From positions 682,001 to 746,000 of the forward strand of contig JABVCE010000017.1 of NCBI GenBank assembly GCA_014905635.1: 64,000 bases of DNA. Reading direction: 5' to 3'. The first letter of the stretch is position 1; every line of letters starts with the position of its first letter. The stretch is from Scenedesmus sp. PABB004. Lineage: Eukaryota. The position numbers and the translations under genes were made by a program. The notes beneath the pieces were generated by a model. The model worked only from the letters and a program-made list of their open reading frames with translations. It had not been told where the DNA came from and made no database searches. Below, one piece after another: positions 185 to 53,668 of the stretch.

Positions 185-2009
185 GGCCGCGTGAAGCTGG
201 CGCTGGAGGAGGTGCTGACGATGTCCCTGGACCCCCAGGATAGCGACGGCGACGAGCCGAGCAGCCCGGGCAGCCCCGCCAGCGCCGGCGGCGACGCCAG
301 CCCCGTCGGCAGCCCCTCCGCAGCAGCCGCCAGCGCCGAGGGCGCGGCGCCGCCGGGCGCGGCGCCGTCGGGGCAGCAGCAGCAGGAGCAGCGCGAGCAG
401 CAGGAGCAGCAGCCGCCGCAGCAGCCGCAGCAGGAGCCGCTTCCCTGGCCGTCGGGGCCGGCGGCCGTGCGGCCGGGCCTCGGCGCCGGCGGGCGCGAGC
501 TGTCGCTGGACCATCTGCACGGCCTCGGCGTCGCCGGCTGCGGCGCGGGGCCGGGCGGCGGCGGCTCCGACGGCGCCGCGCCGCCGGGCCAGCAGCAGCA
601 GCAGCAGCAGCAGCAGCACGCGCCGCGGCGGCGCGGCCACCCGGTGCTCAAGCCCGCCGCGGCGGTCAAGCAGTCGGGCGGCGGCGGCGCAGGCGCCGGC
701 GGCGGCGGCTCGGGCGGCGGCGCGCGCGCGGCCGCGGCGGCGCTGCGGGTACTGCTGGCCGAGGACAACGCCATCAACATGAAGGTGGGTCAGGGTTTAG
801 GGGCGCCAGGGGGTCGTAATAGGGATAAGGGTTTTGAAGGGCTTAGGGCTAGGGCTCGGGGCTAAGCGGCCCTCGGTCGGCTGAAGATGGGGAGCGCGCG
901 CCGCGCGGGGGGCGCGGCGCCCCTCTGTGTGTGCGGGCGTGCGCGGCGCGGCGGGCGGACACCCGCACCCGCGCCCGCGCCGCGCAGGTGGCCATGGGCA
1001 TCCTCGCGCGCATGGGCGTCACTCAGGTGTGGGGGCCCCGCAGCGCCCGCGCCGCCGCGCGGGCGGGCGGTCGCGGTTCCCGGCGGGGGCGGCCGCCGCA
1101 CAGCGCCCGCCCCAAGCCCCGCCCGCCGCCGCCCGCCCTCTCAACGCGTCACCTCTGCTGCACACGCCAAAACCCGTACCTTTCACCGCCCACCAGGTCA
1201 CCCAGGCGGTCAACGGCGCGGAGGCGCTGTCGGCCGTGGCGGCGCGCGGCGGGGGCGACGCGTTTGACGTGCTGCTCGTCGACCTGCATATGCCGCTCAT
1301 GGGCGGCATGGAGGTGCGGCGCCGCGCGGGGTTTAGGGCCGCGCGTCAGCCCGCGCTGACGGGGTTTAGGGTTTCAGGTTTCAGGGTTTAAGGTTTAATC
1401 AGGGTTTAGGCCCCCGGCCTTGCTGTGCGCGACGCTGAGTGCGCGCGCCCGCGCCGCGCCTGGACGCCCGCGCCTGGACGCCCGTGCCCGGACGCCCGCG
1501 CGCAACCCTAAACCAGGTCGTCGCGGCGTACAAGGCGCGCTACCCCGCCAGCCGCGCGGTGCTGGTCGCGGTCACGGCCGACGCGTTTGAGGACACGCGC
1601 GACAGGTGCGCAGGGCTCTGGGGCGCGCGCGCCGCGGGCGCGGGGGGTCTGAGGCCGGGGAGGGTGGAGCGGCGGAGGGGCGCGGCGCGGGCCGCCGCCG
1701 CCGCCGGCGGGTGCGAGCGGCGGCCCCGCTAGCTGAGCCGCGGGCGCGCCCGGGCGCGCCCGCAGGTGCCTGGAGGCGGGCTTTGACGCGTGGCTGCCTA
1801 AACCCTTCCGCGTGGAGGACCTGGTGGCGGTCATATCTGACAGCCAGGCGCGCATCGCCGCGCACGCGCCGCAGGCGGCCGCCCAGGCGCCGGCGGGCGC
1901 GGGCGCGGGCGCGGGCGCGGGCGCGGGCGCGGGCGCGGGCGCGGGCGCGGGCGCGGGCGCGGGCGCGGGCGCGGGCGCGGGCGCGGGCGCGGGCGCGGCG
2001 CCGCGCTGA
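185..2009 (+). CDS. 3' part of a response-regulator receiver-domain protein, probably a hybrid histidine kinase (5' end not resolved, likely outside the window)
   Basis: Exons ~185-784, 988-1026, 1197-1313, 1517-1605 and 1766-2009 with GT-AG junctions splice to LRVLLAEDNAINMKVAMGILARMG...AVNGAEAL...FDVLLVDLHMPLMGGME...VAVTADAFEDTRDRCLEAGFDAWLPKPF, a canonical REC domain with phospho-acceptor Asp and KP motif. Ends in an (AG)n tail. Confidence 0.88.
1895..1997 (+). repeat. (GCGGGC)n coding hexamer repeat giving a poly-Ala-Gly tail
   Basis: About 17 tandem GCGGGC units just before the TGA at 2007-2009. Confidence 0.95.
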
Positions 2010-50800: not shown

Positions 50801-53668
50801 CCATCGCCTGGGGGGCGGTGGCGGGGAGACCAGGGTTTAGGGGGTGCGGCGGCGGGGCAGAGTTGAGGAGGAGCGCGCGGCGGCGCGGCGGGGCGCGTGC
50901 ACGCAGCAAGGCCCGCGCCCCGCCTGACGCGCCCCGCCTGACGCGCCGCCCTGGCCCGCCGCCCTGTGCCACCCCGACCCGCCCTACACCGCCGCACCTT
51001 GCGCACGGGGCCGAGCGTCTTCTTGAACAGGTCGGCGTTGAGCTCCTCGAAGCGCGCGCGCGTGAGCGGCTCGCTCAGGTCGACGCCCTCCGCGAGGCTC
51101 TCAATCTCCACGCGCACCTGGGGGGGGGGGGGTGTTGCGTGGGGGGCGGCAGGGGGCGGCAGGGGTGGGTTGAGGCGTCGAGGTGGGCAGGCGGCAGGGG
51201 GCGGGCCGGCGTGCTGCCGTGCCCGACCGGTCGCCGCCCGCTGCCAGCCTGGCCCAGCTGCCGCGCGCGCGCGCCGCGCCCCGCGGGTCCCCCCCCCCCA
51301 AACGCGCCTGGTGCTGGCTGGAGAGGGCGCGCTTGGCGCGCTCGGCCTCGCGGCGCAGCTTCTGCAGCGCGCGCGCGTCCTTGGAGACGTCGACCTTGTA
51401 CTTCTTCTTGATGAGCTTGATGAAGTACTCCATCACGCGCTGGTCAAAGTCCTCGCCTGGGTGCATGTGTGTGTTGTGTGTGTGTGTGTGTTGTGTGTGT
51501 GTGTGTGTGTGTGTGTGTGTGTGTGGGTGGGCGGGTGGGCGGGAGGGAGGGAGAGAGGGAGCGAGAGAAGGGAAGGGGGAGGGGGAGAGGGAGAGGGGAG
51601 AGGGAGAGGGAGCCGGTGGCGGCTGCGCCCGCCCCGAGCAGGCCCCCCGCGTGCGCGCGCACCGCCGAGGTGGGTGTCGCCGTGCGTGGCGATGACCTCA
51701 AACACGCCGTTGTCGATGGTCAGGATGCTCACGTCAAACGTGCCGCCGCCCTGACCGTGGTGGTGGTGGTGTGCGTGTGTGTGTGTGTGTGTGTTGGGGG
51801 GGGGGGGGGGCGCGGGGCGCGGCCGCGTGAGCGCATGTGGGGGGCGCGCGCGGTTGCGTGCGCGCGCGCAGCCCGCGCCGCCCGCCCCGCCCCTAAACCC
51901 TCGCGCGCCCCGCCCCGCCTCCTGAGCCCCGCCGCCGCGCCGGGGTGGCGGCGTCGCACCAGGTCAAAGACGAGGATGTTCTTCTCGCCGCCCTTCTTGT
52001 CGAGGCCGTACGCGATCGCGGCGGCGGTGGGCTCGTTGATGATGCGCACGACGTTGAGGCCTGCGGGAGGGTTTAGACGGGGGAGGAGAGGGTTCAGGGG
52101 CAGGCGGCGCGGGGCGCGCGGGGCGTGAGCGCGGATGAGGAGGGGGCGTGCGACGGGCGGGGAAGGGCGCCCCTCGCGGGCGCGAGCAAGCTGCGGGCGG
52201 GCGGGCGCGTGCGCGCGCGCACCCGCGATGGTGCCGGCGTCCTTGGTCGCCTGGCGCTGCGCGTCGTTGAAGTAGGCCGGCACCGTCACGACCGCATGCT
52301 TCACGCTCTTGCCCAGGTACGCCTCTGCGCGGCGACGCGGCCGCAGCGGCGGCGCGCGGCGTCAGCGTGCGGCGTGCGCGTCCGCGTGCGGCGCGCGCGG
52401 CGGCGCGCGGCGTCAGCATGCGGCGCGCGGCGCGCGGCGTCGGCAGCGTGCGGCGCGCGCGGCAGCGGGACGCGCCCCTGCCCAGCGCGCGAGCCCGGGC
52501 GGCCGCCCCGCTGAGCGCCCCCCCCCCTCAGCCCCAACCCCGGGCAAGCCTAGGGTTGAAACCCCCTTCGGCCCCGAGAACAGGGATGTCCTGCTCGGAT
52601 GCACTCGCGGCCGATCTCGGCCGATCTCGGCCAAGCCAGCCGCGAGTGCATCCGAGCAGGACATCCCTGTTCTCGGGGGCCACTGAACACACTCGACCCC
52701 CTCCGGCCCCGCTGCCCGGCGCGCACCGGCGGTCTCCTTCATCTTGGTGAGGATCATGGCGCTGATCTCCTCCGGGCTGAAGACCTAAACCACGCCACCG
52801 GGGCGGCGGGGCGGGAGGGGCGGGGAGGGGGCGGGGAGGGGGCGAGGCGGGGGGCGAGGCGGGGCGAGGTGTGAGGGCGGGCGGCGCGCGAGGGCGGCGG
52901 CGCAGTGCTGCCGCGCGCGCGGCGTGGTGCTGCCGCGCGAGCCGCCGCGCTCGCCTTATCCTCGCCGCCGACGGTCACGCCGACGTAGGGCTTGCCCGAC
53001 TTGTCCACGATTGCGTACGACATGAGCTTCTTGTCGCGCTGCACCTCCTTGTCCTCGTACCTGCGCCCGGGGGCGGGCGGGCGCGACGGCGGCTGGGCGG
53101 GGGGGGGGGGGCAGGCGCGGGGCGGCCGCGAGCGGCGGCGGCGCGCGGCGGCCGCGAGCAGCGGCGGCGGCGGCGCGCGCCTGCGGCCGATGAGGCGCTT
53201 GACGTCGTAGACGGTGCGCGTGGGGTTGACGGTGGCCTGGTTCTTGGCCGCGTCGCCGATGAGGCGCTCGGTGTCGGTGAACGCCACATAGCTGGGCGTG
53301 ATGCGGTTGCCCTGGTCGTTGGCGATGATCTCCACGCGCCCGTTCTTGTAGACGCCCACGCACGAGTACGTGGTGCCCAGGTCGATGCCGATCACGGTGC
53401 CGAGCTTCTCCTCCGCCTCCTTGCCCAGCACGCCCAGGGCCGCGCTCGCCAGCGCGAGCGCTGCGGCCGGCGCGCGCGCGCGGGTGGGCGGCGGGCCGAG
53501 CGTGGCGACGTCCGCGGCGCGCGCCGCGGGCGTGGGCCGCCCAGGGCGGCCCCGCGGGGCGCCAACCCCCCGCGCCCATCACCTTCCCGCCCCGCGCCGC
53601 CCCGCGCGGCGCCCGCTGAGGCGCGCGGCGCACGCACCGGCTAGGCACACGAACGCGCCGCGCCTCAT
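47814..53668 (-). CDS. BIP: BiP, ER luminal HSP70
   Basis: Signal peptide split by intron 1; [89 protein letters not shown]-terminal HDEL-stop at 47814-47816. Confidence 0.98.
48988..49074. repeat. Intronic hairpin (24-bp perfect stem) in BiP
   Basis: ctgcgccccgaggggctgcgcggt (48988-49011) is the reverse complement of 49051-49074. Confidence 0.9.
52572..52678. repeat. Intronic hairpin (40-bp perfect stem) in BiP; MITE- or pre-miRNA-like
   Basis: ccccgagaacagggatgtcctgctcggatgcactcgcggc (52572-52611) is the reverse complement of 52639-52678; the loop contains cgatctcggc twice. Confidence 0.92.

Follow-up and report, generated by a model that had tools for sequence, protein, structure and literature searches.

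The window that we analyzed, a 64-kb stretch of DNA from Scenedesmus sp. PABB004 with a GC content of 67-81%, contains two ER chaperone genes, HSP90B on the plus strand and BiP on the minus strand, together with a receiver-domain gene (gene A) and gene C, which is conserved and encoded on the minus strand. Genes in the window have products identical to proteins recorded under the name of this strain. The introns of HSP90B and BiP were mapped by exact spliced matches of the window to the proteins P0001 and P0027, respectively, while the exons of gene C were backed by tblastn with P0136 and P0137. The introns of gene A come from a splice/codon model alone, accompanied by a weak Pfam match (Response_reg, E = 0.0015) in the exon at 1197-1313. 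All results concern this one window and a set of 74 introns, of which 28 are predictions of this analysis. Seven of the 36 verified introns have GC donors. In gene C, an extra exon of our own model (21539-21637, within intron 3) has no homologue support.

These four genes form a set rich in tracts of TTTAGGG, a plant-type unit that we take to be the telomere repeat of this species. Exact matches on both strands of the window numbered 23, compared to 0.47 expected and a maximum of three in 100 dinucleotide shuffles, and GGGTTTAGGG with at most one mismatch was found 52 times, compared to 0.90 expected. The 7-mers of the unit occurred 179 times against about 0.5 expected from composition, while each of the 19 other necklaces of the same composition (G3T3A) gave at most eight matches in the polar zones. 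When tracts of at least 7 nt were considered, 45 of 48 lay inside or touched one of the 74 mapped introns and three lay outside; the mapped introns cover 21% of the window. Tracts were present in 26 of the 50 introns of the four genes but in only 2 of the 24 introns predicted elsewhere (Fisher p = 2.6e-4). Arrays of one to three units are accompanied by degenerate copies (TTCAGGG, TTGAGGG, and CTTAGGG). The longest exact tract measures 19 nt, and all tracts are internal, non-terminal, and made of few units, as is characteristic of short interstitial telomeric sequences (s-ITS). The introns concerned are listed below, with G-form and C-form denoting TTTAGGG- and CCCTAAA-type tracts, respectively, on the sense strand.

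785..987, plus strand: gene A intron 1 (own splice/codon model), with G-form at 792-802 and 828-834, beginning 8 nt past the donor.
1314..1516, plus strand: gene A intron 3 (own splice/codon model), the sole intron with both forms; G-form array at 1329-1410, including a period-7 array at 1363-1398, and C-form at 1504-1514, 2 nt before the acceptor.
12072..12189, plus strand: HSP90B intron 3 (P0001 match), with C-form at 12146-12153 and 12163-12173, then the variant CCCTGAACCCT before the acceptor.
13404..13637, plus strand: HSP90B intron 7 (P0001 match), with a GTGGGC donor followed by four G-form tracts at 13410-13470.
14098..14290, plus strand: HSP90B intron 9 (P0001 match), with G-form at 14106-14125, from 9 nt past the donor; tracts identical in the contig of a related strain.
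14515..14827, plus strand: HSP90B intron 10 (P0001 match), with three C-form tracts at 14777-14824, the last stopping 3 nt before the acceptor; period-7 array at 14801-14824.
15726..15897, plus strand: HSP90B intron 14 (P0001 match), with a GC donor and two C-form tracts (15825-15836 and 15883-15895, the second stopping 2 nt before the acceptor); (AC)11 lies between them at 15860-15882.
17011..17172, plus strand: HSP90B intron 18 (P0001 match), with a GT-rich 5′ end and C-form at 17152-17162, 10 nt before the acceptor.
21958..22151, minus strand: gene C intron 2 (tblastn, P0136/P0137), with sense G-form at 22133-22139 and 22109-22119; donor at 22151.
21359..21826, minus strand: gene C intron 3 (tblastn, P0136/P0137), an exception, with C-form at 21757-21766, 61 nt past the donor.
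20883..21038, minus strand: gene C intron 4 (tblastn, P0136/P0137), with sense C-form at 20914-20923 and 20888-20897 (5 nt before the acceptor); tracts identical in the related strain's contig.
19384..19595, minus strand: gene C intron 8 (tblastn, P0136/P0137), with sense C-form at 19425-19443 (19 nt), adjoining an (AC) run.
19045..19233, minus strand: gene C intron 9, an exception, with C-form at 19179-19190, in the 5′ part.
52785..52954, minus strand: BiP intron 3 (P0027 match), an exception, with a GC donor and the sense end GGTTTAG; G-form at 52784-52791 provides the acceptor AG.
52551-52557, minus strand: C-form in the middle of BiP intron 4, an exception.
51751..51959, minus strand: BiP intron 6 (P0027 match), with G-form at 51891-51901, 59 nt past the donor, and a 3′ (AC) run.
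50808..50997, minus strand: BiP intron 9 (P0027 match), with C-form at 50832-50842, 24 nt before the acceptor.
50504..50729, minus strand: BiP intron 10 (P0027 match), with only degenerate G-form units after the donor (GGGTTCAGGGTTGAGGG, 50697-50713).
49643..49849, minus strand: BiP intron 13 (P0027 match), with C-form at 49677-49694 (18 nt) and 49646-49656 (3 nt before the acceptor).
49342..49546, minus strand: BiP intron 14 (P0027 match), with C-form at 49377-49383 and 49353-49370 (18 nt; 11 nt before the acceptor).

The initial annotation had described telomere-like motifs polarized inside introns, and the mapped tracts bear this out. On the sense strand of the 74 introns, 19 of the 20 G-form tracts of at least 7 nt fell in the 5′ half and 22 of the 25 C-form tracts in the 3′ half, and thus 41 of 45 tracts follow the polarity; the exceptions listed above, in BiP introns 3 and 4 and gene C introns 3 and 9, are absent from the initial annotation. 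The same was true of 47 of 50 10-mer matches (G-form, 19 in the 5′ half and none in the 3′ half; C-form, 28 in the 3′ half and 3 in the 5′ half). As had been proposed, the orientation tracks the transcribed strand, with the same polarity in genes of both orientations. Twelve of the 19 5′-side G-tracts begin no further than 33 nt from the donor, and 8 of the 22 3′-side C-tracts finish no more than 11 nt from the acceptor, while the sole G-form at a 3′ end (BiP intron 3) itself serves as acceptor. All 16 splice-site positions that had been read from the sequence lay within 1 nt of mapped intron ends; at one of them, 50729, the intron end was correct but the exact motif was missing, with only TTCAGGG and TTGAGGG present. 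The statement that (GT)n and (AC)n tracts mostly share the polarity also held, with ratios of 5:1 and 2:7, respectively, between the 5′ and 3′ halves, and all three (CCAC)n tracts lay in the 3′ half. The argument that the orientation speaks against telomere-healing scars stands in part: neither one-sided nor two-sided healing would arrange the two forms by intron position, and thus selection at the RNA level is still required.

The same asymmetry is found in the general composition of these introns. In the 61 introns of at least 130 nt, we counted 173 G runs in the first 65 nt as compared to 19 in the last 65 nt, and 79 C runs as compared to 238. G accounts for 51% of the first 20 intron nucleotides, and C for 52-56% of the last 60. 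The observed-to-expected ratio of AG fell from 0.50 at -62..-43 to 0.29 at -42..-23 and 0.07 at -22..-3, while near the 5′ end it was 1.1-1.4. In an unbiased ranking, the top 7-mer families were (AC)n, CCACCCA, rotations of the telomere unit, (GT)n, and (GCG)n. From base composition, calculated with the motifs masked, one would expect G-forms and C-forms at 2.45:1 in the 5′ half and at 1:6 in the 3′ half. The counts of 19:3 and 1:22 exceed these values without reaching significance (binomial p = 0.08 and 0.15), in a test that is partly circular, since about one-fifth of the A and T of the introns lies within the tracts. The initial annotation had named a polarity fully explained by a general G/C skew as a finding that would undo its reading, and such a skew largely accounts for the polarity but not for the abundance. 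Polarity is therefore not peculiar to the telomere motif and mostly reflects the ordinary make-up of these introns. Composition fails to explain the abundance of the unit, its restriction to introns, and its concentration in four genes, features that fit either a specific source or a specific reader.

Structured human introns carry G triplets in their first 40 nt and C triplets in their last 40 nt, according to the passage of Lin et al. 2016 (PMC4691745) that cites McCullough and Berget. The introns analyzed here have the same arrangement, with G runs filling the first tens of nucleotides and C runs the last tens, and the telomere forms follow it. What differs is that a defined 7-nt plant-type unit supplies many of the G and C runs, in a subset of genes; an enhancer role of these runs in this alga would be putative. 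An AG-exclusion zone upstream of 3′ splice sites was reportedly described by Gooding et al. in 2006. Here, AG is likewise nearly missing from the last 40 nt, and the AG-bearing G-form is therefore missing at 3′ ends. This zone, however, is a general rule that involves no repeat family, and it covers the orientation of the tracts but not their origin.

The explanation that we favor, with slightly better than even confidence, is that the tracts are short interstitial telomere-unit microsatellites whose orientation is determined at the RNA level by the strand asymmetry usual for these short introns. Telomere-unit arrays would belong to a small number of simple-repeat families with which the introns of this GC-extreme alga are filled. 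The G-run-rich first ~60 nt past the donor would act as an intron-definition element of the G-triplet type, while the last ~60 nt, rich in C and A and nearly AG-free, would comprise the pyrimidine/branch region and the AG-exclusion zone. The G-form unit carries GGG but also AG, and because of the latter only positions close to the 5′ end would tolerate it or benefit from it; the C-form unit, having C runs and adenosines but no G, would suit the 3′ end. The polarity of the unit, the general polarity of G and C runs, the AG depletion, and the like behavior of (GT)n, (AC)n, and (CCAC)n are observed. Splicing selection probably keeps or filters the repeats, which may have originated from telomerase-linked repair or slippage. 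A filter acting on neutral insertions would leave intergenic tracts too, and only 3 of 48 tracts lie outside introns.

A putative reader could instead recognize the telomere unit itself, with a subset of genes, in this window the two ER chaperones and genes A and C, using it as a splicing or expression signal, which we regard as rather unlikely. Such a reader might act on pre-mRNA, as a putative two-RRM protein of the hnRNP A1/Gbp1 type on UUUAGGG with a C-strand binder on CCCUAAA, or on double-stranded DNA, as a putative Myb-type telo-box factor acting downstream of the transcription start; in either case, splicing constraints would still filter the orientation. Gbp1 has telomeric DNA and RNA as its substrates. 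The excess of the exact unit over all 19 same-composition controls, the confinement of the tracts to introns, their concentration in four genes, and the way they hug splice sites all argue for a reader. A precedent is hnRNP A1, a splicing regulator that, in the relevant passages of PMC3794818, selects UAGGGA(U) and binds telomeric repeats, and a passage of PMC6549138 mentions Chlamydomonas Gbp1 as a protein that binds single-stranded sequence. Although the G-form here contains UAGGG, as do the splicing elements bound by proteins that also bind the telomeric G-strand, animal UAGGG elements are mostly silencers, and the algal counterpart is putative. Moreover, other simple repeats show the same polarity and intron preference, and thus the polarity requires no special reader; many copies of the unit are also degenerate. 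The 5′ regions and promoters are free of tracts, in contrast to the telo boxes of Arabidopsis and rice, which Gaspin et al. 2010 (PMC3022908) describe as enriched in 5′ UTRs and 5′ flanks and as becoming rarer along the gene, with no enrichment in introns overall. Both systems have short internal telomere-unit copies in genic regions, as do s-ITS, but here the tracts are intronic all along the genes and their orientation depends on position. None was found upstream of HSP90B or BiP, and those in the two genes lie in introns 3 to 18; the tracts were therefore not classified as promoter or 5′ UTR elements of the telo-box type. It is conceivable, though quite unlikely, that GC-extreme Scenedesmaceae have recruited the telomere repeat as a pre-mRNA signal, with putative Gbp1/hnRNP A1-like and C-strand binders reading UUUAGGG past donors and CCCUAAA before acceptors. 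In a genome where A/U-containing signals are scarce, these binders might label the two ends of an intron or raise the expression of certain genes, the ER chaperones among them, and telomerase-linked repair of transcribed DNA could be a source of new units. Alternatively, the repeats could be functionless, having been inserted by telomerase or through slippage where transcribed DNA broke and being lost only where they disturb splicing. The mammalian precedent, s-ITS arising during double-strand-break repair (as stated in parts of the review PMC6410037 and of PMC7215372), is consistent with such scars, as are the shortness of the arrays, their decay into variants, and the difference in one of them, that of HSP90B intron 7, by five letters and a 4-nt gap in a strain that is ~98% identical. 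However, the near-absence of intergenic tracts and the strong differences between genes would be unexpected unless insertion were coupled to transcription, and we consider this origin quite improbable.

The initial annotation had put forward a putative telobox-binding splicing code and two further readings that assign the tracts a direct role in splicing. That the C-form, as CUAAAC, supplies the branch adenosine in introns with no other branch motif is, in our judgment, very improbable. CTAAA is 12-fold enriched at -62..-10 (18 vs 3), alongside CACAC and CCCAC, and another CT[ACG]A[CT] motif was found at -60..-12 in 1 of 15 introns with a 3′ C-form as compared to 16 of 59 without, a difference that is a trend and not significant (p = 0.17). 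The remaining 43 of these 59 introns also lack the classical motif, and thus branch sites appear to be degenerate here anyway. The eight 3′-side C-tracts that finish no more than 11 nt from the acceptor are nearer to it than usual branch distances, and the G-form would be left unexplained. The pairing of a 5′ G-form with a 3′ C-form to join the splice sites, which the initial annotation had proposed together with a check of co-occurrence within single introns, is extremely improbable. The two forms are exact complements, and gene A intron 3, which has both, yields a predicted end duplex of -54.8 kcal/mol. However, only this 1 of 74 introns combines them, as compared to about two expected under independence from 10 and 15 carriers. 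In a comparison of 61 introns with six random partners each, an intron's own ends formed no better duplexes (-43.97 kcal/mol) than ends from different introns (-46.43 kcal/mol; Mann-Whitney p = 0.76), and duplexes between 5′ ends were stronger still (-52.7 kcal/mol). The fish (AC)m-(GT)n introns, as portrayed in the corresponding section of Lin et al. 2016 (PMC4691745), also have simple complementary repeats at opposite ends, but both repeats in one intron are their defining feature, forming a bridging stem with AC 5′ and GT 3′. In contrast, GT and the G-form lie 5′ here, AC and the C-form lie 3′, and co-occurrence does not exceed independence. Bridging introns of this type were rejected, given the lack of both co-occurrence and more stable own-end duplexes. 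An introner- or MITE-type derivation was likewise set aside: when the 74 introns were compared with one another by BLAST, the best 25 of 1514 pairs showed only low-complexity, GC-rich similarity, and inverted ends occurred in a single intron.

If the pattern of polar telomere-unit microsatellites is genome-wide, it would show how introns keep recognizable ends as a genome drifts to nearly 80% GC, with low-complexity repeats, including the telomere unit, supplying G runs, C runs, and the few adenosines that are needed. It would also offer a natural test of whether single-stranded telomere-repeat binders also serve as splicing factors outside animals. Gene prediction in such algae should take account of GC donors and polar repeats. 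The public HSP90B model in the window looks wrong at its 3′ end.

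The G+C content of the window lies between 67 and 81% in 2-kb steps. Pfam scans of its open frames placed an HSP90 gene on the plus strand and one for HSP70 on the minus strand. Protein searches led to P0001 (HSP90B1) and P0027 (BIP5), two proteins listed under Scenedesmus sp. PABB004; the query exon was 100% identical to P0001. Together with two further genes, they are located as follows.

0.2-1.85 kb, plus strand: gene A, a receiver-domain gene with a weak Response_reg match
11548-17413, plus strand: HSP90B, an ER chaperone gene
18.5-22.5 kb, minus strand: gene C, a conserved gene supported by tblastn with the homologues P0136 and P0137
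47817-53668, minus strand: BiP, an ER chaperone gene

BiP and HSP90B are separated by 30 kb on one contig. In Tetradesmus obliquus, the locus tags of BiP (OEZ85_013470) and HSP90B (OEZ85_013471) are adjacent, and OEZ85_013493 is homologous to gene C; this points to conserved linkage. The window also harbors two tandem copies of a unit of about 3.3 kb. WSC domains (E = 7e-23) were detected in the 425-aa open frame that each copy contains (3209-4483 and 6538-7812, minus strand); with a G+C content of about 67-70%, the unit lies below the remainder of the window.

To map introns, we ran a scripted walk of the window against P0001 and P0027, allowing GT/GC-AG introns. All 2613 and 1986 coding bases of the two proteins were reproduced exactly, with 18 introns in each gene. 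Gene C contributed 10 introns backed by the tblastn matches, and the remaining 28, 4 of them in gene A, are predictions from a parse of codons and splice sites for which the 36 verified introns served as training set. This parse over-predicts tiny exons; only introns between two well-scoring exons were kept. Antisense artefacts were left out, as were the repeat region at 2.6-8.0 kb and "intron 19" of the HSP90B annotation. The final set comprises 74 introns (13,265 nt). The annotated 19th intron was dropped because the stretch that the public model P0001 removes (17290-17415, plus strand) encodes, in another frame, ...DEVADKDEL followed by a stop. The C terminus of the model carries no ER-retention signal. 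The real HSP90B probably ends with KDEL near 17413, which would imply, around 17290-17336, either a frameshift or a small intron missing from the annotation.

The overall donor consensus is AG|GTGCG; 7 of the 36 protein-verified introns use GC donors with the consensus G|GCGCGG, at the following positions.

12311, 15228, 15425, and 15726, plus strand: GC donors of protein-verified introns
53180, 52954, and 51307, minus strand: GC donors of protein-verified introns

GC-AG introns usually make up about 1% of eukaryotic introns, and their share here is far above this norm.

Telomere units are strongly overrepresented in the window: TTTAGGG has 23 matches against 0.47 expected, and GGGTTTAGGG with at most one mismatch has 52 against 0.90. 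We found 48 maximal telomere-unit tracts of at least 7 nt, 44 of which lie inside the 74 mapped introns and one of which spans the acceptor of BiP intron 3. The other three are listed below.

1797-1806, plus strand: CCTAAACCCT in a predicted coding exon of gene A, reading L-P-K-P-F
30831-30837: tract outside introns
37396-37404: tract outside introns

The initial annotation had proposed that, on the sense strand, G-form units (TTTAGGG type) follow donors and C-form units (CCCTAAA type) precede acceptors. Our intron map bears this out: the 5' half of the intron holds 19 of 20 G-form tracts, and 22 of 25 C-form tracts sit in its 3' half. The 10-mer matches gave a similar picture (G-form, 19 in 5' halves and 0 in 3' halves; C-form, 28 in 3' halves and 3 in 5' halves), with 25 of 27 intron halves obeying the rule, and the degenerate units TTCAGGG (5), TTGAGGG (3), and CCCTGAA (6) obey it too. 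Because the rule holds in two plus-strand and two minus-strand genes, the polarity follows transcription, as had been claimed. All 16 splice sites originally named agree with mapped intron ends within 1 nt, the one at 50729 carrying degenerate units only. The tracts often lie close to the splice sites: the distance from donor to the start of the 5'-side G-tract is within 33 nt in 12 of 19 cases, and that from the end of the 3'-side C-tract to the acceptor is within 11 nt in 8 of 22. Exceptions to the polarity were found in BiP introns 3 and 4 and gene C introns 3 and 9; the acceptor AG of BiP intron 3 is itself part of a telomere-like GGTTTAG (52784-52791, minus strand), the sole G-form at a 3' end. 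The polar pattern of telomere units is real and striking.

We then compared this pattern with the general skew of the introns. The share of G drops from 51 to 36% across the first 100 nt, and that of C is 50-56% across the last 80 nt. In 61 introns, the first 65 nt contain 173 G runs of at least 3 and the last 65 nt contain 19; for C runs, the counts are 79 and 238. From base composition, after masking of the telomere motifs and of variants with one mismatch, the expected ratio of G-form to C-form is 2.45:1 for 5' halves and 1:6 for 3' halves; the observed ratios of 19:3 and 1:22 are stronger, though not significantly so (p = 0.08 and 0.15). The dinucleotide AG, which is present in the G-form unit, is nearly absent upstream of acceptors (observed/expected of 0.07 at -22..-3 and 0.29 at -42..-23) and reaches 1.1-1.4 near donors. 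Runs of (GT)n, (AC)n, and (CCAC)n, most of them intronic, share the polarity of the telomere tracts, in agreement with the initial annotation for (GT)n and (AC)n. A (GGTG)34 microsatellite at 20096-20235 on the plus strand, read in sense as (CCAC)n in the 3' part of gene C intron 6, has the matching orientation. The telomere units, like other microsatellites, mostly owe their polarity to the ordinary architecture of these introns, with its G runs, C runs, and lack of AG.

The skew, which the initial annotation had named as a refutation of its proposal if it fully explained the polarity, accounts for most of the polarity but not for the abundance. Rotations of the telomere heptamer, for which composition predicts about 0.5 occurrences overall, amounted to 56 G-form and 11 C-form in 5' halves and to 1 G-form and 111 C-form in 3' halves, while each of the 19 other necklaces of G3T3A (circular arrangements of the same composition) reached at most 3 and at most 5 in the two polar cells. 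In an unbiased ranking under a second-order model, the leading families included the telomere rotations, (AC)n, CCACCCA, (GT)n, and (GCG)n. A tract is present in 26 of the 50 introns that belong to gene A, HSP90B, gene C, and BiP, as compared to 2 of 24 predicted introns of other genes (p = 2.6e-4). The skew does not account for the unit itself, its near-confinement to introns, the gene-to-gene unevenness, the closeness of tracts to splice sites, or the like placement of degenerate units.

Among the mechanisms proposed initially, pairing of complementary intron ends found no support: 1 of 74 introns combines the G-form on its 5' side with the C-form on its 3' side, with about 2 expected from 10 and 15 carriers, and predicted duplexes between an intron's own ends (-43.97 kcal/mol) were no more stable than those between ends of different introns (-46.43 kcal/mol; 6 random partners per intron; p = 0.76). 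Fish bridging introns (PMC4691745), whose defining feature is the co-occurrence of the two repeats, have AC at the 5' end and GT at the 3' end; the introns of the window show the reversed polarity without co-occurrence. The structured human introns of that paper, in which G triplets occupy the first 40 nt and C triplets the last 40 nt, come closest to the general architecture of the introns in the window. Regarding the suggestion that the C-form serves as a branch-point surrogate, CTAAA is enriched 12-fold at -62..-10, alongside CACAC and CCCAC, and about one third of 3'-side C-tracts lie very near the acceptor; another classical branch motif is present in 1 of 15 introns with the C-form and 16 of 59 without it, a difference that is not significant (p = 0.17).

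The abundance of the unit, its near-confinement to introns, and its unevenness between genes might reflect selection for a specific reader, as a telobox-binding splicing code would involve, or a transcription-linked source. The protein hnRNP A1 binds UAGGGA(U) RNA and also telomeric repeats (PMC3794818), and insertion of short interstitial telomeric repeats at breaks has been described in mammals (PMC6410037). The distribution differs from that of plant telo boxes, which concentrate in 5' UTRs and flanks rather than introns and become rarer along the gene (PMC3022908). An introner or transposon origin was rejected, as the best 25 of 1514 BLAST pairs among introns showed only low-complexity similarity. 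Word searches of open-access main text did not turn up any account of telomere-unit repeats with such a polarity in introns, nor did a term look-up in a Scenedesmus telomere-to-telomere preprint.

Last, we turned to related sequences. A metagenome scan for BiP gave 80 loci, in which nearly all matches leave no space for introns; G+C exceeds 66% in 7, and 11 others have at least 3 unit 7-mers. The four of the 80 examined in context (L059, L080, L036, and L007) contain isolated unit matches only. A C-form-like sequence upstream of an acceptor in L007 was discarded as an orthologous case, since its intron is 4 codons off. Two freshwater metagenome DNA runs of one study, X1 and X2 (shares of 0.10 and 0.07), yielded short low-depth contigs about 98% identical to 11400-22600, introns included. 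In this related strain, a sample too small for judging conservation of the tracts, HSP90B intron 9 and gene C intron 4 have the same tracts as in the window, and the array in HSP90B intron 7 shows 5 letter differences and a 4-nt gap.
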